64,000 bases of DNA. Origin: Candidatus Latescibacterota bacterium. Its GTDB lineage: Bacteria; Latescibacterota; UBA2968. How positions within the stretch are numbered: position 1 is the stretch's first letter; the number at the start of each line of letters is the position of its first letter. Where the stretch lies: the NCBI GenBank assembly GCA_965204745.1, contig OZ242010.1:224001-288000 (forward strand), in the 5' to 3' direction. Below the pieces are notes generated by a model. The model was not told the origin of the DNA. It searched no databases and worked only from the letters and a program-made list of their open reading frames with translations. The translations under genes were made by a program, and so were the position numbers. Below are positions 11,350 to 56,466 of the stretch, one piece after another.

Positions 11350-11550
11350 TCAGCCTGTCGAGCCAAAGTCGGCGACGAAGATGAGGAAATCGGAGAATCC
11401 AATCTCGCCATCGCCATTGAGATCGCACCGGGCGTCATATCGCTCCTGTCCGAGCCGCGATCCAAACTTATCCGCAAAGGTCAAGAAGTCGGCGAAATTC
11501 ACATTGCCATCGCCATTGCCATCTGTGGCGGTCAAGGAATAGGCTTTCAT
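11350..11550 (-). pseudogene. dockerin/EF-hand-like C-terminal remnant ORF
   Basis: DGNGDGNVNFADFL and DLNGDGEIGFSDFL motifs; no signal peptide; ATGA overlap with upstream gene. Confidence 0.6.
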
Positions 11551-14500
11551 TGGAAGTGGGAGGCGGGATAGAGGCTTCGGATGTAGGGTTCAATTTCTTG
11601 AGCGGTCGTGCGCGTGGCAGTTGGCTCGATGACGTTCCCTCTGAGGAGGGCCTCGTTCCGGAAGAAGAGGACATATCGAATGATCAGGATTATATCCGAG
11701 AACAGCCTCACATCGCCATCGCCATCCACATCGAGAATGTTCTGACCGACCAACGTGTCGAGGTAGGGGGTAATGGTTTGCGGGGTCGTGCGCGTGGCAT
11801 CTGGCTCGATGACGTTCCCTCTGACGAGGGCCTCTTCCCGGAAGAAGAGGACGTATCGAATGACCAGGATTATATCCGAGAACAATCTCACCCGGCCATC
11901 GCCATCCACATCCAAGTTGGCACTCGGGGTTTCGTCATCGGTCAGGGTCAGGGTCACGGGTGCGGGTGCGGTGATGCCTTGGGCGTTGTTTGCGGTTGCA
12001 GACACCGTGACCGTCTTCTCGTCTGCCTGGTCGTTGTTGTCCTCTGCGGTGATCGTCACGGTGCCCGTGCTCGTTGTGGTCGTCACCGCGATGATCAGGG
12101 TGTCTGCACTCGATAGCGTGAAGTCGCTCGCAGTCGCAGGGGACACAGGCGTAGCAGAGACCGTGATCGTCGTGATCGCGCTCGATGGATGCGATAGGGT
12201 CGCCGTGATCGTGGAAACCTCGGCGTTTTCCGAGATGGACGAGGGCATCAGCACCAACGTCACGGTCGGCGCATCTTCATCGTCGGTCGTCGTCACTGGA
12301 ACATCCTCATCCGAAAGGGTGTTGTAGTTGGCATCGCCGCTTGACGAGGCGAGTCGCACCGTCCAGGTGACGTTCCCGTCGTCGATGATGTCGTCTTGCC
12401 CGGTCACGGTCACGGTTTGTGCCGTGTTATAGCCTGACGTCGTGAAGGTCAGCATCGCAGGCTCAACCCGCCCCTCGCTCGGGTCTTGGCTCGTCACCGA
12501 AATCGTCACCGCCGCCGTGGGTTGCGTCAGCAGGGCCACCGTGAAGGTCGCCGAGCCACCGGCCTCTGTGGCCTGCCCGGTCACCGCGCTGATGTCCAAG
12601 CCGAAATCGTTATCGCGGTTGACCATGTACACGATGATCGCGGAGAGCGCGTCGTAGTTGGTGTCCTGCGTATCCGTCTGGTTCACCGAAAGGGTGACCG
12701 TATAGTTCTGGTTGCCATCGACGTTGTTGGCGGGGGCATCGTCCTGTCCGGTCACGGTCACGGTTTGTGCCGTGTTCCATGTTGTCGATGAGAAGGTCAG
12801 CACCGAGGGCGATACAGTACCTTCCGTCGTGTCTGAACTGACCACCGAGAGTGCCACATTTCCGGTTGGCTCGGAGGCGAGCGTGACCGTGAAGGTCTCT
12901 GCCCTGCCCGACTCTGTCGTGTGGAGCCTGACCGTCGTCGTGGTCATCGCCGACACCTCAATCGCCGCCTCGTCGTCATCGGTGATCGTCAGCGTCACAG
13001 CCTGCACGGTGCCCGCGCCGTGGTCGTTCTCCACAGCAGCGGTCTGCACCATCACCGCGTTGTCTGATGCGTCTATGTCGTTGTCCACGGCGGTGAGTGC
13101 CACCGTGTCCGTCGCGTTCGCCGTGCTCCCAGCCGCGATGGTGATCGTCGAATCCGACCCTACGGTATAAGCATTCGCCACCGGGCGTACCGTGATCGTT
13201 GTCGCCGCGCTCGATGGGTGTGTCAGCGTCGCGCTCACCGTGCTCACGCCGCCGGCCTCCGAGATGGACGCGGGCGACAGCATTAGTGTCACGTCCGGCG
13301 CGGCGTCATCGTCTGTGATCGTCAAAGCCGTGCCGGTCACACTGCCTGCGCCTTGGTCATTGCTCACCGCAACAGACACGGTCACGTCGCGATTAGGCGC
13401 GTCTTGGGTGTTGTTCACCGCTGTAATGACCACGGTATCCGACGCGTTCGCCGTGCTCCCGGCCGCGATGGTGATCGTCGAATCCGACCCCACCGTGTAA
13501 GCACCGGTCACAGGGCGCACCGTGATCGTCGTTGCCGCGCTCGACTTGTGAGACAGCGTCGCTGTCACCGTCGAAACACCGCCGTTCTCTGCAATCGACG
13601 CGGGCGACAGCGTCAGTGCCACATCCGGCGCGGCCTCATCATCGGTGATCGTCAGCGTCACGTTAGACGATAGCACCGCCCCATTGCCACCTGCCACCGT
13701 TGCAGACACGGTCACGCGCTTGTCCGGTGCATCGGTCGTATCGTTCACCGATGTGATCGTCACGGTGCCCGTGCTCGTCGTCACATTCGCCGCGAAGGTC
13801 AGCGTGGTCGCGGTCGATAGCGTAAAATCGCCCGCAACCGCAGGGGCCACCGCGGTCGCTGAAACCGTGACCGTCGTCGCCATGTTTGTGATGCGATCCA
13901 GCGTCGCCGTGATCGTGGAAACCTGGGCATTCTCCGTAATCGACGAAGGAGTCAAAACCAACGTCACGTTCGGCACGTCGTCATCGGTCAGCGTCAGCGT
14001 CACATCAGTGACCGATCCCGTGCCTACGCTGTTGGTTAGCGTACTCGACACGGTCACCGTCTTGTTCCCCGTAGCATCGGCGTTATCCTCCCCTGTGATC
14101 GTCACGGTGCCCGCGCTCATCGTTTGCCCCGCCGCGACGGTCAGCGTGGGCGGCGTACTCAGCATGTAGTCGGCCGGAACCGCAGGTGACACAGGCGCCA
14201 CTGTCACCGTAATCGTCGTCGGATGGCTCGACGTGTGAGACAGCCTCGCGGTCACGGTCGAGACACCGCCGTTCTCCGTAATTGACCCATCAGACAAAAC
14301 CATCGTCACGTCCGGCGCAGCGTCGTCGTCCGTCAGCATTATAGTGCCGGTCACACTACCCGCGCCTTGGGCGTTGCGCGACACAGCGGATATGGTCACG
14401 GTGCGAGCAAGCTCGTCTCGGGTGTTGTCCAACGTTGTGATGACCACCGTGTCCGACGCGTTTATCGTGTCCCCGGCCGCGATAGTGATCGTCGTATCCG

Positions 14501-17500
14501 CCGATATCACCGCGTAAGCACCGGTCACCGAGCGCACCGTGATCGTCGTCGCCGCGCTCGATGGACGCGAGAGCGACGCCGTGACCGTCGCCGCCTCGCC
14601 GTTCTCCGAAATCGACGCGGGATTCGGCGTCAGCGTCACCATCGGCGCAAGGTCGTCGTCGGTGATCGTCAAAGTGCCGGTCACCCTGCCCGAGACTTGG
14701 CTGTTGTGCATCACAGCGGACATGGTCACGTCGCGATTAGGCTCGTCTTGGGTGTTGTCCACCGCTGTGATGACCACCGTATCCGACGCGTTCGCAGTGC
14801 TCCCGGCCGGTATGGTGATCGTCGAATCCGCACCCACCGTGTAAGCATCCGCCACTGGGCGCACCGTGATCGTCGTTGCCGCGCTCAACGACCGTGACAG
14901 CGTCGCGGTCACGGTGCTCATCCCACCGCTTTCCGAGATCGACGAGGGCGTCAGTGCCAACGTCACGACCGCGGGTTGGAGCTGAAATTGCACGGTGGTG
15001 TCCAGGCCGGCATACTTCAAGGCCGGATACTGATCCATCGCGCCAAAGGTCCACGGATCGTCGTTGCCGGGTTGTCCGTCTATGTTGGCGTTCCAGCCGT
15101 AGTAGGTGTCGTTGGTGGTGGCACCGTAGGTGGTGGGGCTCTGGAGCTCGCTGGTCGTCTTGCCCGCCGCGCCGCTACCGCCGAAGCTCGTTGGGCGCCC
15201 GCTGGTTGTGGTGTCCCAGTAGCTATCGGTAACCGTGCCCGTGCCGGCATTCGACTCGCCCAACAACCCGCCGATAGATGTCATCGACCCGCTGGAGAGG
15301 CTGACCGCGCCGGTGGAGTAGGAGTTTGTTATGGAGCCGGCGGCGGCTTTTGAGCCTACCAGCCCACCGAGGTTCTGAGTCGCGCTGACGGATGCGAGGG
15401 AGTAGCTTGTAGAAATGGAGCCTCCGGTCCAGCCGACCAGACCGCCGACGACATTGTCGCCCGTCATGCGACCGGTGGTGTAGCAGGCGACGATTTCGCC
15501 GCGATTGCCGCCGACCAGAATGGCACTAAAGTCGTCTGCCGTAACATCGGCGTCGGTTACGCCCAGCGACTCGATGCGGGAGTTGGTGCCGGTGCCGCCG
15601 AACAGTGCTTGGTAGCTAACGGTGTTGCGGCTGATGAACAGGTTTTGGACGGTGTAGCCGTTGCCTTTGAAATCGCCTGTGTATCGTAACGCTGGGCTGG
15701 CGTCGGAGCCGATGGGCATCCAGCCTTGGCCGCTATTCCAGTAGGCGGCGTCTGCTGAGGTGATTGCGCCATCGTTGTTCTCGTCAAAGTCCAGGTTGTT
15801 GAGCAGTTCGTAGCCAGTGCAACCGCTGGAAGGGCAACCCTTGCTCGCTGACAAGTTCCCGTTGGGAAAGGCGGCGTTGTAGGTGGTCGTATCGGCGGTC
15901 GTGGCACTTGAGTCTATGGCACCATCGCCATTGATATCCCAGCGCATGGCATGCAGTTGGGCCAAGGTCGAGACCTCGAGGAGGCCATCGCTATCCGTGT
16001 CGTAATTCACGGGTTGGGCAGCGTACTGCGCCGTGGTGTCCAGGCCGGCAAACGTCAAGACCGGATACTGCTTTGTCGTGCCAAAGGTCCAGGGATCATC
16101 ATCGTTGGTCCCCGAAGCATCTATGGTCAGATCGTCCCAGTTGGCATAGATGCCGCTCGCAGACGTGATCGATTGTAAGTCGGAGGTCAGCTTGCCCTCC
16201 GGCGCAACAGTATCGCTATCATCGGCAATGTCGCTTGTTTGCGTGTCCCAGTAGCTATCGGTCACTGTACCAGCCGAACTGCCCACCAACCCGCCTTTCG
16301 TGCCGGCACCCGTGACTGCGCCCGTCGCGTAACTGGCGGTCACGCCACCGCCGCTCGCGATTTGACCCACCAACCCGCCGGCCACCGCGTTGCTGTGTCC
16401 CGCGAACACAGAGCCCAGCGCGTAAGACGCCACCACCTCGGTCTGATCGGTCAGCCAACCCACCAAACCGCCGGCCAATCCGTCACTCGTCACATGTGCA
16501 GGAACCCGCACAGAGACGAGCGCGTAGCTGCTCACAATGCGATTAGTGCCCGAAGTGCGATAAGACCGACCAACCAAACCACCCACACCCCACCGCGACC
16601 CCGAAACGCGACCCGTCACATAACACGACGAGATGGTGCCCCCACCACCTTGATTACCGGTCAGACCACCCACGCGGTCAGCACCGGTCACATTCACATT
16701 CAACAACCCCAACCCCGAAACATCGCCATCAACCGCATGGAACAATCCTGTATTATGCCGAGACCCCCGGTTGATGTACAAGTGGGAGATCGTCTTGTTG
16801 TTGCCTTTGAACGTGCCGCCGTAAGGCCCCACAGGGTCCCAGCCGGCGCCGCCATTCCAGTAGGTGGCGTCTGCTTGGGTGATCGCGCCGTCGTTGTTCT
16901 CGTCAAAGTCCAAGTTGTTGAGCAACTCGTAGCCGATGCAACCTGTGGAAGGGCAACCCTTGCTCGCTGACAAGTTCCCGTTGGGAAAGGCGGCGTTGTA
17001 GGTCATGGCATCACTATCGGCGACGACCCCATCGCCATTGAGATCCCAGCGCATGGCATGCAGTTGGGCCAAGGTCGAGACCTCGAGGAGGCCATCGCTA
17101 TCCGTGTCGTAATGCACGGGTTGGGTAGCGAACTGCGCCGTGGTGTCCAGGCCGGCAAACTTCAAGGCCGGATACTGCTTTGTCGTGCCAAAGGTCCAGG
17201 GATCATCATTGTTGGTCCCCGAAGCATCTATGGTCAGATCGTCCCAGTTGGCATAGATGCCGCTCGCAGACGTGACCGATTGTAAGTCGGAGGTCAACTT
17301 GCCCTCCGGCGCAACAGTATCGCTATCATCGGCAATGTCGCTTGTTTGCGTGTCCCAGTAGCTATCGGTCACTGTACCTGAGTTTTCCGCCAGCCCATGC
17401 TTGTGCAGGCAGGCCCCCGTCACTGATCCCAGCGAGTAGCTCGACGCGATCGTCGCACCCGAACCATTGGCACCTACCAACCCTCCGCCAGTGCCCCACG

Positions 17501-19184
17501 GCCCCGACTGATTGCACACCACAGACGCCGTGGCGTAACTCGCCACGATGTACGACCCCCTCTGAGCGGCGCCCACCAACCCGCCGACATTGGTGTTCGC
17601 CGTGACCGACCCCGTGACGTAACTCGCCGCGATCCGACCCTTGTTCAGACCCACCAGCGCGCCCACCGTGCCCTGACCCGTATTGATCACCGCGTTGACC
17701 AACCCCAAAGAGCGGATGTGGGCAGTGGTATCCGTGCTTGCGAAAAATCCCGAATAGTTGGTGTAGCGGTTGATGTACAGGTGGGAGATCCTCTTGCCGT
17801 TGCCCTCAAATGTGGCGGTGTATGGGGCGGTGTTGCTACTGCCGATGGGTGCCCAGCCCGCGCCGCCATTCCAGTAGGTGGTGTCTGCTTGGGTGATTGC
17901 GCCGTCGTTGTTCTCGTCAAAATCCAAGTTGTTGAGCAACTCGTAGCCGGTGCAGGTCCCGGACGGGCAACCCATCCGGCCGCTACTGGTGGTGTCGTGG
18001 CTGGGAAAGGCGGCGGCATAATCGGCGTGGGTAGCGTCGCCATTGCCGTTGAGGTCGTGGCGAATGGCGTTGAGTTGCGCCAAGGTGGTGATGTCAATCA
18101 GGCCGTCGTTGTCGTCGTCGTAGTCAATCCCAACCACGGAAGGACTGACGTACTTCAGTACCGGGTACTGACTACTGGTGCCGAAGTTCCACGGATCGTC
18201 TCTGCCTTGGCTATCGCCGGTGGCAGTATTGCCATCCAAGTTCAGGTTCCAGTTGGCGTAGATGCCGGTGTAGCCAGTGGGATTTTGGAGATTGCTGGTG
18301 GACTGACCGCTACCTATTAAGATTGACCCTGAAGCTTTTGAGGAGTCCCAGTAGCTGTTCGACGCGCTACCTCCGGCTTCGTCCCCGACTAATCCGCCGG
18401 GAGAACCACCGGTGCTGAGGGTACCTGCGAAGTACGAATTTGTTATAGTGACATCGCCCCACACCTCGCCTACCAAACCGCCGATTGAGCTTTGGTTGTT
18501 GGTGGATGTAACGGATGCATGGGAGTAGCTAGTTGAGATACTTCCTGTGCCAGCCCGGCCGACTAATCCAGAAAGTCTTCCTCCGCCCGTCAGTGTGCCG
18601 GTGGTGTAGCAGGCGACGATTGTGCCGGAATTTTGGGATACCAGAATGCCGCCCCGGTTTTTTAACGTAACATTGGCGTTGATGATGCCGAGGGTTTCGA
18701 CGCGGGAGCTGGATCCAAATTGGGAGAACAGTCCGATATAGTTGGTGGAGCTACGGTTGATGAACAGGTTGTCGATAGTGTGGCTATTGCCCTTGAAATT
18801 GCCCGTGTAGGTACCACCTATGGGTAGCCATCCGGCGCCGCTGTTGTAGTAGGCGTCGCCGGAGTCTGTGCCGATGGTGCCGTCGCCGTCGGTGTCTAGG
18901 TCAATGTTGGCGGTGAGTTCGTAGCCGACGCAGGTAGTGAGGCAACCCATGCCTGTGGCGGCGTTGGGGAATGCGGCGTTGTAGTTCGCAGTATCCGTAG
19001 CGGCTACGACCCCATCGCCGTTGAGGTCCCAGCGAATGGCGTTGAGTTGGGCGTGGCCGGACACCTCAATGTAGTTGTCGTTGTCCGTGTCGTAGTCGAC
19101 GGTGGTTTGGGCAAAAGCAGGCCCTGATGCCACCAGCATGCCCAACGCGACCAGGGCCAACAAGCGAGCGTAGCGGGGCATCAT
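11547..19184 (-). CDS. giant secreted/surface protein: 4 GLUG-repeat modules, Calx-beta/Ig-like stalk repeats, C-terminal twin DVDGDG domain
   Basis: Signal peptide (AFA-Q), repeated GGLVG, YWD, QYPxLKY, TLTITDDD motifs; 2545 aa. Confidence 0.85.
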   Translation of the reverse strand: MMPRYARLLALVALGMLVASGPAFAQTTVDYDTDNDNYIEVSGHAQLNAIRWDLNGDGVVAATDTANYNAAFPNAATGMGCLTTCVGYELTANIDLDTDGDGTIGTDSGDAYYNSGAGWLPIGGTYTGNFKGNSHTIDNLFINRSSTNYIGLFSQFGSSSRVETLGIINANVTLKNRGGILVSQNSGTIVACYTTGTLTGGGRLSGLVGRAGTGSISTSYSHASVTSTNNQSSIGGLVGEVWGDVTITNSYFAGTLSTGGSPGGLVGDEAGGSASNSYWDSSKASGSILIGSGQSTSNLQNPTGYTGIYANWNLNLDGNTATGDSQGRDDPWNFGTSSQYPVLKYVSPSVVGIDYDDDNDGLIDITTLAQLNAIRHDLNGNGDATHADYAAAFPSHDTTSSGRMGCPSGTCTGYELLNNLDFDENNDGAITQADTTYWNGGAGWAPIGSSNTAPYTATFEGNGKRISHLYINRYTNYSGFFASTDTTAHIRSLGLVNAVINTGQGTVGALVGLNKGRIAASYVTGSVTANTNVGGLVGAAQRGSYIVASYATASVVCNQSGPWGTGGGLVGANGSGATIASSYSLGSVTGACLHKHGLAENSGTVTDSYWDTQTSDIADDSDTVAPEGKLTSDLQSVTSASGIYANWDDLTIDASGTNNDDPWTFGTTKQYPALKFAGLDTTAQFATQPVHYDTDSDGLLEVSTLAQLHAMRWDLNGDGVVADSDAMTYNAAFPNGNLSASKGCPSTGCIGYELLNNLDFDENNDGAITQADATYWNGGAGWDPVGPYGGTFKGNNKTISHLYINRGSRHNTGLFHAVDGDVSGLGLLNVNVTGADRVGGLTGNQGGGGTISSCYVTGRVSGSRWGVGGLVGRSYRTSGTNRIVSSYALVSVRVPAHVTSDGLAGGLVGWLTDQTEVVASYALGSVFAGHSNAVAGGLVGQIASGGGVTASYATGAVTGAGTKGGLVGSSAGTVTDSYWDTQTSDIADDSDTVAPEGKLTSDLQSITSASGIYANWDDLTIDASGTNDDDPWTFGTTKQYPVLTFAGLDTTAQYAAQPVNYDTDSDGLLEVSTLAQLHAMRWDINGDGAIDSSATTADTTTYNAAFPNGNLSASKGCPSSGCTGYELLNNLDFDENNDGAITSADAAYWNSGQGWMPIGSDASPALRYTGDFKGNGYTVQNLFISRNTVSYQALFGGTGTNSRIESLGVTDADVTADDFSAILVGGNRGEIVACYTTGRMTGDNVVGGLVGWTGGSISTSYSLASVSATQNLGGLVGSKAAAGSITNSYSTGAVSLSSGSMTSIGGLLGESNAGTGTVTDSYWDTTTSGRPTSFGGSGAAGKTTSELQSPTTYGATTNDTYYGWNANIDGQPGNDDPWTFGAMDQYPALKYAGLDTTVQFQLQPAVVTLALTPSSISESGGMSTVTATLSRSLSAATTITVRPVADAYTVGADSTITIPAGSTANASDTVVITAVDNTQDEPNRDVTMSAVMHNSQVSGRVTGTLTITDDDLAPMVTLTPNPASISENGEAATVTASLSRPSSAATTITVRSVTGAYAVISADTTITIAAGDTINASDTVVITTLDNTRDELARTVTISAVSRNAQGAGSVTGTIMLTDDDAAPDVTMVLSDGSITENGGVSTVTARLSHTSSHPTTITVTVAPVSPAVPADYMLSTPPTLTVAAGQTMSAGTVTITGEDNADATGNKTVTVSSTLTNSVGTGSVTDVTLTLTDDDVPNVTLVLTPSSITENAQVSTITATLDRITNMATTVTVSATAVAPAVAGDFTLSTATTLTFAANVTTSTGTVTITSVNDTTDAPDKRVTVSATVAGGNGAVLSSNVTLTITDDEAAPDVALTLSPASIAENGGVSTVTATLSHKSSAATTITVRPVTGAYTVGSDSTITIAAGSTANASDTVVITAVNNTQDAPNRDVTVSVAVSNDQGAGSVTGTALTITDDDAAPDVTLMLSPASISEAGGVSTVSATLTHPSSAATTITVRPVANAYTVGSDSTITIAAGSTANATDTVALTAVDNDIDASDNAVMVQTAAVENDHGAGTVQAVTLTITDDDEAAIEVSAMTTTTVRLHTTESGRAETFTVTLASEPTGNVALSVVSSDTTEGTVSPSVLTFSSTTWNTAQTVTVTGQDDAPANNVDGNQNYTVTLSVNQTDTQDTNYDALSAIIVYMVNRDNDFGLDISAVTGQATEAGGSATFTVALLTQPTAAVTISVTSQDPSEGRVEPAMLTFTTSGYNTAQTVTVTGQDDIIDDGNVTWTVRLASSSGDANYNTLSDEDVPVTTTDDEDAPTVTLVLMPSSISENAEVSTITATLSHPSSAITTITVSATPVSPATASDFTLSSADTLIIAVTTTTSTGTVTITAEDNNDQADEKTVTVSATANNAQGITAPAPVTLTLTDDETPSANLDVDGDGRVRLFSDIILVIRYVLFFREEALVRGNVIEPDATRTTPQTITPYLDTLVGQNILDVDGDGDVRLFSDIILIIRYVLFFRNEALLRGNVIEPTATRTTAQEIEPYIRSLYPASHFQ

Positions 19185-19371
19185 TTTGTCCCCCTCTCGA
19201 GGGGGGGGGGGGGGGGGGGGGGTACACTGTACTGATCATCCTAACAGACTGCTTTGCAATGAAATAGAAGCACACGCCAAGACGAGAATGGGCACCATGA
19301 ACCGCTCTTTTCGCGGAAAAAACATAGGACCAAATGAGGTTCAAACAGCGGCTGAAAATGGCGGTGATCAT
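19066..19371 (-). CDS. putative leader ORF containing the homopolymer tract
   Basis: AAGGAGG SD 6 nt before ATG; conserved in paralogous locus; translation unproven. Confidence 0.45.
   Translation of the reverse strand: MITAIFSRCLNLIWSYVFSAKRAVHGAHSRLGVCFYFIAKQSVRMISTVYPPPPPPPSRGGQNDAPLRSLVGPGRVGHAGGIRACFCPNHRRLRHGQRQLH
19201..19222. repeat. G22 homopolymer (C22 on coding strand) 16 nt upstream of main ATG
   Basis: Seen directly. Confidence 0.9.
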
Positions 19372-19457
19372 CCGGAGCCTCCTTTGCAAAAGCACTGTCG
19401 CACAGACCGGGCGCGGCTTTTCCTCCGCGCTCAAAATCGAAATAGCGAATGGGTAAA

Positions 19458-19486
19458 AAATTAAAAATTACGCTATTGTTTGTCAA
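19458..19486 (-). promoter_or_regulatory. sigma70-like promoter TTGACA-17-TAATTT
   Basis: Perfect -35, 17-nt spacer, conserved at 51935-51963. Confidence 0.65.
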
Positions 19487-19619
19487 GTGGTAAAATGACG
19501 ATGGGACCGGTGGCCAGTCAAGCGAGAAGGACAGGCACAGGGGCCTGTGCCTGCGACGGATGGCGACAGGGCGTGCGATTAGCCACAAAAGGCACAAAAA
19601 CACAAAAGGGCGATGGGTC

Positions 19620-20040
19620 TTCCGAGGGATTGTGCGAGGGGGGTTGGGGTTTCTATGGCGTGATCCATTCGCCCAAAGCCATCAAAACAGCCAGGGATAC
19701 AACCCTTTAAGAAAGCCATGCGCTCCCCCTTTCCTCGTAGGAAAGGGGGCCGGGGGGATAGGTCCTGCGAGGAAGGGGGAATGGCGAGAGGTTGTGCGAG
19801 GGATTGTGTGTAAGGGTTTTTGGATTTTCATGGCGTGATCCACTCGCTCAAAGCCATCAAAACAGCTAGGGATACAAACCTTTAAGAAAGCCATGCGCTC
19901 CCCCTTTCCGCGTAGGCACAGGCGTAGCCTACAATGAGCGAAGCGAATAACGGGGGCCGGGGGGATAGGTCTATGGCGGTAGGGTGGTGTGGGGTAATCC
20001 GCGCAATCCTCTAATCCGTTTAATCCGCGATTCAGACACG
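19620..20040. repeat. composite palindromic repeat block with internal ~115-bp tandem duplication
   Basis: ...GCCATCAAAACAGC..GGGATACA..CCTTTAAGAAAGCCATGCGCTCCCCCTTTCC twice, then TAATCCG motifs. Confidence 0.85.
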
Positions 20041-51383: not shown

Positions 51384-52231
51384 CAATGCGAATTGAGAGT
51401 AGAAAGCGAGTAAGAAGCAAGCCGCAACCCATCATCCAAAGACATGAACGAGGTTCTGTTGACATTTTGTTTTTGAGCGATGAGCGTGACCTCAAAATAG
51501 AGAAAGCCTCGATTCTCACCTCGCCACCCTGCCGCCCGTGCGTTCCTCGCCGCTCTACCCAACCGCCCGTGCGGCCTCACCGCGCCACCCAACCGTGTCT
51601 GAATCGCGGATTAAACGGATTAGAGGATTGCGCGGATTACCCCACACCGCCCTACCGCCATAGCCCTATCCCCCCGGCCCCCGTTATTCGCTTCGCTCAT
51701 TGTAGGCTACGCCTGTGCCTACAAGGAAAGGGGGAGCACATGGCTTTCTTAAAGGTTTGCATCCAGGGCTGTTTTTGATGGCTTTGCGCGAATGGATCAC
51801 GCCATGAAAATCCAAAAAACCTATCGCACAATCCCTCGCAAAACCGCTCACAGTTCCCCCTTCCTCGCAGGGACAGGACCCTGTGCCTGTCCTTCTCGCT
51901 TGACTGACCACCGATCCCATCGTCATTTTACCACTTGACAAATAATAGCGTAATTTTTAATTTCTTATCCATTCGCTATTTCGATTTTGAGCGCGGAGAA
52001 AAAGCCGCGTCTAATTTGTGCGACAACTTTTGCAAAGGAGGCTCCAGATGATTACCACCATTTTCAGCCGCTGTTTGAACCTCATTTGGCACTATGTTCA
52101 CTCCGCGAAAAGTGGCGTTCATATCGCCCATTCTCGTCTTGGCGTGTGGTTCTATTTCATTGCAAATCAGTCTGTTAGGATGATCAGTACAGTGTACCCC
52201 CCCCCCCCCCCCCCTCGGGAGGAGCGACAAA
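51384..52231. repeat. inverted homologue of 19185-20167 (upstream region of giant gene), including promoter 51935-51963 and C18 at 52197-52214
   Basis: Block-by-block reverse-complement similarity. Confidence 0.9.
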
Positions 52232-52344
52232 ATGACCTCCCGATCCGCTCACTTGTTGGCTCTGGTCGCGTTGGGCATGCTGATGGCATCAGGGCCGGCT
52301 TTTGCCCAAACCGACTACGATACGGACAACGACAACCTGATTGA
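52048..52344 (+). CDS. putative leader ORF containing C18 tract
   Basis: AAGGAGG SD; paralogue of 19066-19371. Confidence 0.45.
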   Translation: MITTIFSRCLNLIWHYVHSAKSGVHIAHSRLGVWFYFIANQSVRMISTVYPPPPPPREERQNDLPIRSLVGSGRVGHADGIRAGFCPNRLRYGQRQPD

Positions 52345-55300
52345 CATCACCTCCTTGGCGCAACTCAATGCCATTCGCTATGACCTCAACGGCGATGGTA
52401 CGGTACCGTAGCCACTACGGATACCATGAACTACAACGCCGCCTTTCCCAACGCCATGTCGGGCATGGGTTGCGCCGCTACCTGCACCGGCTACGAGTTG
52501 ATGAACAACCTGGACTTTGACGAGAACAACGATGACCAGATCACCTCAGCAGACGCCACCTACTGGAACAGCGGTGCCGGTTGGACGCCCATCGGTGTTG
52601 CGTCCACCGGTGCTGCAACCGTCTTCTCTGCCACCTTTGACGGCAATGACAACACCATTTCCAACTTGTTTATCAATTCCAACACCAGCACTGCCACCGG
52701 CGGCGGTTTCGTCGGTCTGTTCGGCGATGTCAGCGGCACGATTAGAGATGTGGGCTTGTTGGACGTGAATATCACCAACACTCGCACTTTCGTTACCACC
52801 GGTTTAAACTTTGGTCGAACCGGTGCCTTGGCGGCTCGCCTCAGTAGCGGCGGCGCGGTGCGCGGGAGCTACGTCGCCGGCGGCTCCGTAACCCACACCA
52901 CCGGCAGTGGCAATGTCGGCTATCTCGGCTGTCTATTGGGCTACGCCACTGCGCCCGTCAGCGATAGCCACGCCACCTGCAATGTGACCGGAGCGAGCGA
53001 CCTCACGATTTACTTAGGCGGCCTGATCGGTGGATCCGACGGTAACGTCGACTCCACCTACGCCACTGGGACGGTCACCAAAACCGGCTCCGGTGCCAGC
53101 CTCGGCGGTGGCCTGATCGGTTGGACCACGGGCCGGGTCAGCGTCAGCTACGCGACCGGGAATGTCACCGCCGCCGGCCGCGGCAGAGCGGGCGGCCTGA
53201 TAGGTTTTATGCAGGGTCCCAGCTACGCCAACTACGCGACCGGGAACGTTTCCGGCACCGGCACCGGTGACGGTTCCACCAACATCCAAAGCCTCAGAAT
53301 GGGCGGCCTGATCGGATCGATGGATCTCGGTAGTGGCGAATACCTGCGCTCCAGCTACGCAACCGGGAACGTTTCCGGCACCGGCTCCGGCGTCAAAGCG
53401 GGCGGCCTGATAGGTCAAGTGCAGGTCACTGACGCCAACTCGATAAGCGCCGTCTATGCTATCGGCGCTGTTTCCAACATCAGCACCGGCACCACAGCCA
53501 CCGGCGGCTTGGCGGGACAACAGACGGGTTCAGCCAACCCGATGACCAACAGCTACTGGGACAGACAAACCACCGGGCAGACCACCACCGCTGGCACCAG
53601 TAGTAGCACCACTGGCGCTCAAACCACCAGCGCACTCCAAACCCCCACAGGCTATACCGGCATCTACACCACCTGGAACCAGAATCTGGACGGGCAAACG
53701 GGCAACGACGATCCGTGGTACTTTGGCGCGACGAATCAGTACCCCGTGTTGAAGTATGCCGGCCTGGACACCACCGCGCAATTTACGTTGCAACCGCCGG
53801 GCAGGCCGGTTGTGGCAGTGACGTCCAATGGGGACACTTTGTACGTGGGCTGGAGTGCGGCGAGTCAAGCGACGGGATACACCGTGCAGTGGAAATCCGG
53901 CATGCAAAGCTACGACGCCTCGCGTCAGGCCACCACCACGGCTACGCGCTACAAGATTCCCTTGACGACGGGGACGACCTACACAGTACGTGTCCTTGCC
54001 ACCAAGACCGGTGCGCGCAACACAGCTTCGGTCGAGGTCATGCGCGCTCCAGGCCTCACCAATTACGATACCGATGGCGATGGCCTCATCGCTATCACCA
54101 CGCTAGCTCAGCTCAACGCCATTCGCCACGACCTAAACGGCAATGGCGACGCTACCCACGCCGATTATGACGCTGCCTTTCCCGGCTGCGACACCAGCAG
54201 CAGCGCCCGCATGGGCTGCCTCTCGGGATGCACCGGCTACGAACTGCTCAGCGACCTGGACTTTGACGAGAACAACGACGGCGCAATCACCTTAGCAGAC
54301 GCCACCTACTGGAATAACGGCGCAGGCTGGATGCCCATCGGAACCGACGCCGACACAAACGCTCCATACACAAGCCAATACCACGCCGTTTTCAAAGGCA
54401 ACGGCTACACCATCAACAACCTATACATCAGCCGCCCCAGCACTAACGACGTCGGGCTGTTCGGCGCAATTTCCTCCCCCGGCCGCATCGAGACCTTGGG
54501 CGTAATCAACGCCGACGTTACGGCGCAGTATTGGGTCGGCATTCTGGCAGGCACCATTCGCGGCGACGGCGATATTGTCGCCAGTTACACCACCGGCGAG
54601 GTTGCCGGCACCCAAAATGTTGGTGGATTAGTCGGCTACATGTTAGAAACAGGACCAGGAATCCACTCCAGCTACTCTACAGCATCCGTCAGCGGCAATC
54701 TGAACGTCGGCGGTCTATTGGGCCGCCAGGACAGCGGCGGCTCTATAACAAACTCATACTCCACCGGCAGGATTAGCGGCACCGGAAGCTCTCCCGTCCA
54801 AATCGGCGGACTATTAGGCCTCGGTAACCTGGGAAGCGTCGTGTCCAACAGCTACTGGGACACCTCCACCAGCGGGACTACCTCTAGCGAAGGCGGCACG
54901 GGCAAGACGACCCGCGAGCTCCTAAGCCCCACCACCTACGGTGCCACCAGTAGCGATCCCTACTACAACTGGAACGCCAACCTCGACGGACAAGCCGGCA
55001 ACGACGATCCGTGGACCTTTGGCGCGATGGATCAGTATCCGGTCTTGAAGTATGCCGGCATGGACACCACCGTGCAATTTCAGCTCCAACCTGCGGTCGT
55101 GACATTGGCACTGACGCCTTCGTCGATCTCGGAAAGCGGTGGGATGAGCACCGTGACCGCGACGCTGACACGGTCATGGAGTACGGCGACGACGATCACG
55201 GTGCGTCCTGTGGCCGGTGCTTACACGGTGGGGATGGATTCGACGATCACCATCGCGGCCGGGAGCACGGCGAACGCGTCGGACACGGTGGTCATCACAG

Positions 55301-56466
55301 CGGTGGACAATACCCAAGACGCGCCTAATCGCGACGTGACCGTGACCGTTGTATCAGACAACGACCAGGGCAGTGTGGTCCTCCCGACCGAGATAACGAT
55401 CATCGATGATGACGCGCCGCCGAGGCTCTCGATCAGTTCGCCGAGTGCGGTTGAGGGCACTGCCCTGACGTTCACCGTTAGATTGAATGCAGTGAGCGAC
55501 AAGGCGGTGACGGTGGCGTATGCAGACGCGGGCACGGGCACCGCGACTTCGGGTACCGATTACACCGCACTTACCGCAGGGACCCTGACCTTTGCGGCAG
55601 GCGTGACCAGCCAGACCATCGCTGTTTCTGTGACCGGCGACACGGATAATGAGCAGAACGAGACCGTGATCGTGACGCTGAGCAGTGCGACCAATGCGAC
55701 CATAAGCACGGCGCAAGGCACAGGGACGATTATCGATGACGATGGCATGCCTGCGCTGAGTATCGGTTCGCCCAGCGTGATTGAAGGCGCGACCGGCGCG
55801 ACCCTGACCTTTCAGGTGTACCTACGCCCAGCGCACACGGCACAAGTGACGGTGGCGTATGCAGACGCGGGCACGGGCACCGCGACTTCGGGAACCGATT
55901 ACACCGCGCTTACCGCAGGGACCCTGACCTTCGCGGCGAGCGATACCATCCAGACCATCCCTGTTTCTGTGACCGACGACTCGGATGATGAGCAGAACGA
56001 GACCGTGATCGTGACGCTGAGCAGTGCGACCAATGCGACCATAAGCACGGCGCAAGGCACAGGGACGATTATCGATGACGAAACCCCGAGTGCCAACTTG
56101 GATGTGGATGGCGATGGCCGGGTGAGATTGTTCTCGGATATAATCTTGGTCATTCGATACGTCCTCTTCTTCCGGAACGAGGCCCTCCTCAGAGGGAACG
56201 TCATCGAGCCAACTGCCACGCGCACGACCGCTCAAGACATTGAACCCTACCTCGACACGTTGGTCAATCAGAACATTCTCGATGTGGATGGCGATGGCGA
56301 TGTGAGGCTGTTCTCGGATATAATCCTGATCATTCGATACGTCCTCTTCTTCCGGAACGAGGCCCTCCTCAGAGGGAACGTCATCGAGCAAAATGCTACG
56401 CGCACGACCGCTCAAGCCATTGAACCCTACATTCGAAGCCTCTATCCCGCCTCCCACTTCCAATGA
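52232..56466 (+). pseudogene. paralogous surface protein (2 GLUG modules, FN3-like, Calx-beta, DVDGDG domain), frameshifted by GGTAC duplication at 52397-52406
   Basis: Signal-peptide frame stops at 52411; removing 5 bp rejoins it to the 52426-56466 ORF and restores alignment with locus A. Confidence 0.85.

Follow-up and report, generated by a model that had tools for sequence, protein, structure and literature searches.

A poly-C tract between two start codons in a giant adhesin-like gene family of a Latescibacterota symbiont: a candidate dual-start contingency module

We analyzed a window of 64,000 nucleotides (nt) from the genome of a Candidatus Latescibacterota bacterium (GenBank assembly GCA_965204745.1, contig OZ242010.1, positions 224,001 to 288,000 of the forward strand), and within it the 5' end of a minus-strand gene for a giant adhesin-like protein, protein A. 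At this site, locus A, a run of 22 cytosines lies between two start codons, an upstream one (ATG1) at the head of a leader of about 50 codons and a downstream one (ATG2) at the head of the region encoding a signal peptide. On balance, and with a confidence only slightly above even, we consider locus A to be one of 24 dual-start simple-sequence contingency loci, in which the length of the tract switches synthesis driven from ATG1 and ATG2 provides a residual level. The module containing the tract heads a gene family with about 43 members, whose giant, secreted, adhesin-like products reach up to 6,900 residues, and about half of the family carries very long C tracts in this one shared 5' module.

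Organization of locus A

The features of locus A were read base by base on the minus strand of the window. The most upstream is a promoter-like region (19458..19486) made up of the -35-like hexamer TTGACA (19486-19481), a 17-nt spacer, and TAATTT (19463-19458). An initial annotation of this stretch, made from the letters alone, had called this a promoter. A strict sigma-70 consensus scan of positions 19000-19900 returned no promoters, so this element is described here only as promoter-like; nevertheless, TTGACA followed after 17 to 18 nt by an A/T-rich hexamer (TAATTT, TTAATT, or TATATT) is aligned across paralogs despite differing flanks in an alignment of the 24 tract-bearing loci. A scan of the same interval for terminators found no terminator-like sites. 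The 5' untranslated region (5'-UTR) can form a hairpin with a GCGCGG arm, the loop AGGAAAAG, and a CCGCGC arm (19411..19430, minus strand), whose arms differ yet stay complementary in other subfamilies (GCAGGC...GCCUGC and GCCGGU...ACCGGC) as judged by eye in the alignment.

The first Shine-Dalgarno motif (SD1), AAGGAGG (19378..19384), lies 6 nt 5' of ATG1 (19371-19369). The leader, or N-terminal extension, consists of ATG1 plus 49 codons (MITAIFSRCLNLIW...FYFIAKQSVRMISTV; 19223..19371) and ends at the tract, which is C22 on the coding strand and G22 on the plus strand (19201..19222) and encodes prolines, between four and eight of them, whatever the frame. It is followed by TCGAGAGGGGGACAAAATGA, with the main ATG at 19184; a second Shine-Dalgarno motif (SD2), GAGAGGGGGA (19189..19198), stands 5' of this codon. 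ATG2 (19184-19182) is part of AAAATGA, within which the ATGA (19181..19184) joins the start to an overlapping TGA (19183-19181). The main open reading frame (ORF; 11547..19184, minus strand) encodes 2545 residues, starting with a Sec-type signal peptide, MMPRYARLLALVALGMLVASGPAFA/Q (19184-19107), and continuing with an N-terminal domain, DYDTDNDN...LNAIRWDLNGDG.

These elements agree with the initial annotation, as does the spacing of 187 nt between ATG1 and ATG2, which leaves a remainder of 1 on division by 3. As assembled, the leader ORF has 101 codons (19066..19371, minus strand) and overruns ATG2 by 119 nt out of frame, that is, by 39 codons plus the stop, in line with the roughly 40 codons first reported. 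The linker of 16 nt from the tract to ATG2 reads REGDK in the ATG2 frame. That frame has no stop in the linker, so that loss of one C would join the leader to the main ORF, as had been proposed. The third frame ends on the TGA of the ATGA and is reached at C23, which bears out the claim that one additional C would place the leader stop on the main start. The assembled C22 may be off by one or more bases, and the overshoot state of locus A is thus not secure.

The module across the genome

The source genome is a single contig of 5.48 Mb with 56.5% G+C. A leader profile search identified 37 copies of the 5' module, 24 of which carry C12 to C25. The genome contains 30 G/C runs of at least 12 nt, compared to about 2.0 expected from base composition, and 26 of at least 15 nt, compared to 0.05 expected; there are no A or T runs longer than 12. 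Of the 30 runs, 24 sit at the module, after a ...GATCAGTACAGTGTA motif and before SD2 and ATG2. This clustering of long G/C runs at the module is far beyond chance.

The elements around the tract are maintained at nearly all of these loci. The SD1 position has an (A/G)GGAG(G/A)-type motif in 23 of 24 loci and AAGAGAG in the remaining one. A purine run with GGAG or GAGG is found 5 to 9 nt before ATG2 in 23 of 24 loci, and also in relatives. ATG2 lies 14 to 19 nt downstream of the tract, and the linker between them has no stop in the fusion frame at any of the 24 loci, with variable encoded residues (REGDK, GRSDK, RRETK, and EESD).

Homopolymer contingency loci are textbook features of Neisseria, Haemophilus, Campylobacter, and Helicobacter. 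The C22 of locus A compares with a length of roughly 8 or more for hypermutable G/C runs of such loci, and it is placed where its length sets the frame of ATG1 relative to the main ORF. Loss of mismatch repair was considered as a cause of the long tracts and rejected, as MutS and MutL domains are both present.

Frame states and variation of tract length

Relative to ATG2, ATG1 is in phase 0, 1, and 2 at 10, 6, and 8 of the 24 tract loci, respectively; these paralogs share descent and possibly gene conversion, so that counts across them overstate independence. The consequences as assembled are 10 fused loci, 9 loci with the leader stop at or next to ATG2, and 5 overshoot loci, a split that represents a sample of uncertain calls, as the assembled lengths of 12- to 25-nt homopolymers are error-prone. 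Among the nine stop-at-start loci, seven have the exact ATGA overlap (relative position +4) and in two the stop ends 1 nt before ATG2. In the five overshoot loci, the leader runs 70 to 119 nt past ATG2. Unfused leader products have 58 to 101 residues. For 13 loci in two congeneric species, with tracts of C9 to C31, the corresponding numbers of fused, stop-at-start, and overshoot loci are 4, 5, and 4. The three frame configurations described in the initial annotation are thus real.

Paralog pairs in which 193 to 198 of 200 flanking bases are identical differ by 1 to 12 C, and equal tract length is seen in only 1 of the 25 most similar pairs. Either tract length evolves much more quickly than the sequence around it or the assembler miscalls it.

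Other samples were also searched for the locus. Of 20 sequencing runs listed, 19 contain part of the stretch, the best covering 0.46 of the sampled words, and all were available as contigs; the runs with part of the stretch are mostly sponge metagenomes. In the metagenome contigs, an exact DNA pattern across the tract junction had no matches and the leader-peptide profile gave 115 pattern matches, none of which was confirmed. Among the shorter proteins of other samples, the closest to protein A had 62% identity, and no orthologous locus from another strain was found.

Paralogs with collapsed tracts

The 13 leader copies that lack a long tract (C3 to C6, interrupted, or deleted) bear on which start codon is used. 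Seven of the 13 are in-frame fusions with intact ORFs of 1577 to 6938 residues, a share that is not significantly above one third (binomial P of ~0.10). Two of these fused copies, intact genes of 6938 and 1760 codons, lack SD2 and ATG2 (genome positions 183376 and 4580225). In these two, the signal peptide's hydrophobic core follows the leader directly as a result of the deletion. ATG1 is thus the sole start at these two genes that gives a signal peptide. Direct fusions of leader to core also occur in other assemblies (P0013 and P0021), and five further genes have the structure SD1-ATG1-MITALFRSR-LLALVALGMLVASGPAFAQ (LLALVALG...), in which the first eight leader codons form the n-region of the signal peptide. 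Taken at face value, these intact genes indicate that the ATG1 fusion is functional.

The collapsed and direct fusions together argue that the leader is an expandable N-terminal part of the precursor and not merely an upstream ORF. Because the leader can be the N terminus, one of the three states has the tract within the gene itself, which is the arrangement of classical phase variation. The initial annotation had held that expression is tuned through the frame of the leader "rather than by frameshifting the gene itself." The first half of that statement accords with the three configurations, a leader that is open in all 24 copies, and the conservation of SD2 and ATG2. The second half finds no support in that wording, as the collapsed-tract paralogs show that the leader can be a true protein N terminus.

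In the remaining 6 of the 13 copies, the leader is broken or fixed in a frame that does not match ATG2, and the main ORFs are intact (1501 to 3773 residues). Two have the ATGA overlap, two have a stop 8 nt before ATG2, one overshoots, and one has a deleted leader. Another gene keeps only a 3' remnant of the leader, C6, SD2, and ATG2 and has an ORF of 1241 residues. These intact genes, along with the conservation of the SD2 motif and its ATG across subfamilies and species, suggest that ATG2 probably works too.

Translation of the leader

None of the 24 copies has a stop in the leader frame; of the other two sense frames, one is interrupted by stops in all 24 and the other in 22. The three antisense frames have stops in 24, 23, and 10 of the 24, on which ground an antisense gene under the leader was rejected. 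A 12-nt indel, present in 5 copies, is the only one in the leader among 23 copies; the copy at genome position 5385980 is missing 4 nt adjoining the tract. Within the genome, the ratio of nonsynonymous to synonymous changes per site (pN/pS) is 0.50 in the leader frame and 0.98 and 1.32 in the other frames. Together with the strong SD1, the open frame and this ratio place the repeat within a translated upstream reading frame; the leader is, as far as such patterns can tell, translated.

Two further observations concern the leader as nucleic acid. The 48 nt before the tract (TTCTATTTCATTGCAAAACAGTCTGTTAGGATGATCAGTACAGTGTA; window positions 19223-19270, minus strand), which contain GATC and GTAC palindromes, are conserved between species (compared with loci L038-L059 of the congeneric genome G018), with a synonymous rate (pS) of 0.27 versus 0.46 to 0.55 in the rest of the leader. 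A small hairpin is found in the middle of the leader (window positions 19290-19310, minus strand; e.g., CCGC-GAAAAGA-GCGG); in the alignment, its arms appear to change in a compensatory way (CCUG/CAGG, CUCCU/AGGGG, and CUCCUG/CGGGAG) and the GAAAA loop is constant.

Relatives and public proteins

Among 31 family genomes searched with the leader profile, three carry the module. Besides the source genome, these are two congeneric species, one with 15 matches (G018) and one with 3, of which one is strong (G016); the remaining 28 genomes gave no match. Against 1.84 billion representative proteins, the profile had 26 matches at an E value of ≤0.001. The match begins at residue 1 in all 25 proteins for which a stretch is reported; the weakest long match, P0025, reports none. 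Seventeen of the 26 proteins have 36 to 122 residues, and nine have 306 to 2446 residues. The short ones mostly end in ...PPPP-x-ER(G/S)xK, which corresponds to the ATGA stop, and the long ones run through the prolines and the linker into the signal peptide. These short and long forms indicate that the same alternative states exist in other assemblies.

A Pfam scan of the 57-residue leader found no families at an E value of ≤0.01, and protein A matched no Pfam or NCBIfam family at ≤0.1. The best score in an ESM Atlas search with the leader was 0.79, with no match at ≥0.9. The N-terminal 260 residues of protein A have 748 relatives at an E value of ≤1e-30 among 8000 scored, many of them with a GLUG motif.

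Three proteins from another lineage that belong to the same adhesin family (P0029, P0119, and P0120) have a different upstream peptide, four to six prolines, and a purine-rich linker before a signal peptide starting MRTSRR..., and most of their relatives start at the M of MRTSRR.... To judge from these proteins, this looks like an analogous poly-C dual-start layout, which suggests that this layout may have had more than one origin or spread repeatedly. Other species of the order (G010 L036, G020 L034, and G029 L035) have C20 to C24 in a different context, ...AGTACTT(C/T)TA-Cn-GAAT..., and matched the query via the tract only.

Proposed mechanism and alternatives

We infer that tract length is altered by slippage in vivo, that both starts are used at tract-bearing loci, and that the states differ in output. 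Slippage during replication would alter the number of C residues. ATG1, with its strong SD1, would open the segment of about 50 codons that leads into the poly-C, and ATG2, with its own SD2, would open the signal peptide. When the distance between the two ATGs is a multiple of 3, ribosomes from ATG1 would make the whole protein as a fused precursor consisting of the leader, several prolines, a short linker, and then the signal peptide. In the other two phases, they would make only a peptide of 58 to 101 residues, and the protein would come from ATG2 alone. A leader stop at or next to ATG2 (ATGA overlap) would favor reinitiation; a run-over of 70 to 119 nt would favor occlusion of ATG2. General knowledge of translational coupling makes it plausible that the two out-of-frame states differ in output; a stop overlapping or abutting the start, as coupling would call for, is present in 9 of 24 loci and would arise at locus A only at C23. 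The tract would thus turn the strong ATG1 route on and off, and the ATG2 route would probably leave a lower, perhaps frame-dependent, level.

Proline runs can stall ribosomes, and poly-C RNA is a classic ligand of Rho. The genome encodes Rho, so the unfused states could also suffer polarity over genes of 3 to 20 kb. A bolder version, which we put forward tentatively and regard as doubtful, treats the 24 loci as three-level rheostats: a strong ATG1 route to a long precursor, reinitiation at ATG2 through the ATGA, and near silencing by run-over. In such a rheostat, the proline run and the action of Rho on naked poly-C RNA would sharpen the differences between levels. If the rheostat exists, 24 independent loci would give one symbiont lineage in its sponge host an enormous combinatorial repertoire of giant surface proteins.

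Several points weigh against the dual-start switch. Between species, the pN/pS of the whole leader is 0.78, compared to 0.83 and 0.84 in the other frames. Only codons 1 to 12 are under constraint (0.27), and the middle of the leader (codons 13 to 33) is unconstrained (1.12). Codons 34 to 49 have a ratio of 0.90, with low pS (0.27) and a pN of 0.25. According to this profile, what is kept in the leader is its start, its first dozen residues (M-I/L-T-A-I-F-R-R-C-L-N-L), its length, and its openness, and the middle is free; the nucleotide conservation of the last 16 codons points to a possible cis-acting role of the DNA or RNA that lies outside the dual-start model. A signal peptide behind about 60 residues that include a proline run is unusual, and export of such a precursor is putative. 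As SD2 is at least as accessible as SD1 in silico, the predicted folds give no structural reason for ATG2 to depend on translation of the leader. The uncertain tract calls and the nonsignificant share of fusions among the collapsed copies, both described above, count on the same side, as do the contig pieces from four runs (four studies), which break at positions 19187-19231 with none spanning the tract. No RNA runs are among the 20 listed.

The alternative that survives best is a pure upstream-ORF switch, the model of the initial annotation, in which the leader is always separate, ATG2 is the start of the protein in every case, and output is tuned by the tract through coupling, run-over, or nonproductive fusion; we judge it unlikely. 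It would account for the conservation of SD2 and ATG2 with the signal peptide directly at ATG2, for the exact ATGA overlap at 7 of 24 loci, for the six locked, nonfused paralogs with intact ORFs, and for a leader that varies in its middle and keeps its length and openness, as expected if the act of translation alone matters. It could also draw on a local hairpin that pairs SD2 with codons 2 to 4 in most loci (GGGG/CCCC or GGGAGG/CCTCCC; -10 to -14.7 kcal/mol). This hairpin shows apparent covariation, yet its mean z-score is only about -1, and in folds of the whole UTR, SD2 is not less accessible than SD1 (mean unpaired probabilities of 0.44 and 0.35, respectively); masking of SD2 by the tract or the hairpin, which the local folds hint at, was dropped as an argument on this ground. 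A switch acting on ATG2 only does not fit the two intact genes of 6938 and 1760 codons that, lacking SD2 and ATG2, can start only at ATG1, the five genes that use ATG1 and the first leader codons as the start of the signal peptide, or the openness of the linker in the fusion frame at all 24 loci.

The opposite simplification is a classical two-state ON/OFF switch with ATG1 as the sole physiological start, the tract within an extended signal-peptide coding region, ATG2 and SD2 unused, and both other phases equally OFF. The locked in-frame fusions, the direct fusions, and the perfect AAGGAGG of SD1 would be expected from such a switch, and the layout resembles the G/C tracts in the signal-peptide region of Neisseria pilC. 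We nonetheless find it distinctly unlikely. Six paralogs with an out-of-frame or broken leader and one without ATG1 keep ORFs of 1241 to 3773 residues, and GGAG or GAGG at Shine-Dalgarno distance from an ATG is conserved across subfamilies and species while the linker varies.

A different kind of explanation has the tract act on RNA or transcription and not on the reading frame, through Rho loading, pairing with SD2, a processing site, or a transcription start in the tract; in that case, output would respond to tract length but with no period of three. The conservation of the 48 nt before the tract (pS of 0.27) and the presence of Rho in the genome agree with this explanation, as do the TACAGT or TACAAT directly before the tract and a predicted SD2-tract pairing probability of about 0.6 in GGGGG-type loci. 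Upstream-ORF-dependent attenuation by Rho is described in a review (PMC12360218), and in H. influenzae the transcribed hmw repeat is reported to base pair with a G-rich stretch and to be a target of cleavage by RNase III (PMC12721329). Against it, the pairing is missing in GGGAGGAG-type loci, replacement of the tract by C4 in silico leaves SD2 accessibility nearly unchanged (0.36 versus 0.39), and the open leader frame in all copies goes unexplained. An internal promoter using TACAGT was rejected, as the alignment has no -35 element at the workable distance of 16 to 18 nt. The RNAalifold consensus energy over the 24 loci is weak (-2.9), and a search of Rfam found no model at its gathering score, the only match being to one long noncoding RNA model (25.1 bits versus a gathering score of 80; E value of 0.067). 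As a replacement for the frame model, we consider an action on RNA or transcription quite improbable; it is compatible with that model and could add to it via polarity in the unfused states.

Constitutive frame mixing, by transcriptional slippage or by +1 ribosomal slippage on CCC-C, would yield all three frames whatever the length of the DNA tract. Homopolymers are slippage sites for RNA polymerase, CCC-C is a site of +1 shifts by tRNA-Pro, and tracts of C12 to C31 are unusually long. Frame mixing is very improbable here, given that near-identical paralogs differ in tract length, which argues for change at the DNA level, and that collapsed paralogs have settled in definite frames with intact ORFs. 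We give hardly any credence to the idea that the lengths are assembly noise, or the tracts stable and neutral with no switching: homopolymers this long are hard to call, but three genomes assembled independently of one another have tracts at the homologous position, public protein entries have proline runs, the tracts are enriched over expectation (30 runs versus about 2) with 24 confined to one module, and collapsed and interrupted versions coexist with long ones, which indicates turnover.

Comparison with known systems

Phase variation of the pilC and opa type in Neisseria involves a repeat in the signal-peptide-coding region. As in those genes, a G/C homopolymer follows the start codon close to the 5' end of a gene for a surface protein and sets the frame here, and many paralogous or independent loci are present per genome. 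Unlike in pilC and opa, the tract precedes the hydrophobic core and stands behind an extension of about 50 codons, the tracts are much longer (12 to 25 nt), and the host is an uncultured Latescibacterota symbiont and not a pathogen. In addition, a second Shine-Dalgarno motif and ATG, of which pilC and opa are not known to have a counterpart, stand just after the tract, so that the out-of-frame states need not be null.

Extended signal peptides are known from the extended signal peptide region (ESPR) of autotransporters and two-partner-secretion proteins and from YSIRK-type proteins. The leader resembles these in being a conserved N-terminal extension before an ordinary Sec signal peptide on very large surface proteins, and its Y(S/F)IAKQ motif is loosely reminiscent of YSIRK. 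It differs in holding a hypervariable proline run and an internal start. Given the lack of a Pfam family match at an E value of ≤0.01, the leader is not a member of either group.

To our knowledge, such switching has so far been tied to host-adapted pathogens, and we know of none described for a candidate phylum of animal symbionts. A literature search on leader- or upstream-ORF homopolymer switches, sponge symbionts, and Latescibacterota, with subscription-only papers and supplements outside its scope, found neither this arrangement nor contingency loci in the group. As far as the literature was searched, the lineage and the scale of these loci are new. They suggest that an uncultured animal symbiont varies its surface at random as a strategy of life, perhaps to counter phages or the phagocytes of its host. 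A repeat placed between two working starts would be an unusual design that allows more than ON and OFF states, namely, different precursors and different levels. A practical consequence is that gene calls for the family flip between a short "hypothetical protein" followed by a large gene and one fused gene, according to a base count that is prone to assembler error.

Three described systems have parts of this arrangement. The lic1 locus (licA) of Haemophilus influenzae has a translational switch based on CAAT repeats with alternative initiation codons, of which three lie upstream of the repeat in two frames (PMC2212159). In both cases, repeat number aligns start codons with the ORF, and starts in different frames give more than two expression states. 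All of the starts described for licA are upstream, whereas the module has one start on each side of the repeat; it also has a homopolymer and an ATGA overlap in place of a tetranucleotide repeat for which that account gives no stop/start overlap. In pil1 of Streptococcus gallolyticus, a phase-variable leader peptide is combined with attenuation, in which ribosomes destabilize a stem-loop terminator (Danne et al. 2014, PMC3894217). There, too, a repeat within a leader ORF upstream affects how far ribosomes get on their way to the structural gene, and hence its expression. Unlike pil1 as outlined there, locus A has no terminator-like site at 19000-19900, the module leaves 14 to 19 nt from the tract to ATG2, and its leader can also fuse to the gene. 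For hmw1A of H. influenzae, expression is reported to fall monotonically with the number of 5'-UTR repeats through RNA structure and RNase III, with no leader ORF in that description (PMC12721329). The module shares with hmw1A a transcribed repeat upstream of a giant adhesin gene and a G-rich partner downstream; it differs in having a leader ORF and in the mixed folding results given above (local hairpin z-score of about -1 and SD2 not masked).

Other features of the window and genome

A second copy of the module, locus B, is located on the plus strand of the window (52035..52234), with SD1 at 52035-52041, ATG1 at 52048, C18 at 52197-52214, and ATG2 at 52232. Its two ATGs are 184 nt apart, which puts it in the overshoot state, and over 852 aligned columns it matches locus A with a mean column identity of 87%. 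The main gene of locus B, which encodes a protein with Calx-beta and FN3 domains, is broken: 59 codons counted from ATG2 are followed by an in-frame TAG (52409-52411), and the ORF picks up again at 52426-56466. Relative to locus A, there are two extra bases in the GGTACGGTACC stretch (window positions 52380-52430, plus strand), and the break is due to a frameshift or to an error in the assembly.

Just upstream of the module at locus A is a repeat of about 150 nt (window positions 19606-19760 and 19780-19916, minus strand). It has dozens of copies in the genome, often as tandem pairs or triplets, with about 45 matches to query positions 1-155. This repeat may be an intergenic element resembling miniature inverted-repeat transposable elements (MITE-like) or repetitive extragenic palindromes (REP-like).

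Six more long G/C runs (C13 to C21) are found at genome positions 732472, 1578675, 1833000, 3250395, 4295687, and 4540232, with flanks unrelated to the module. Two of them share the context ...GGGGAAATG-C13-GAAAATC. These six runs may represent other contingency loci.

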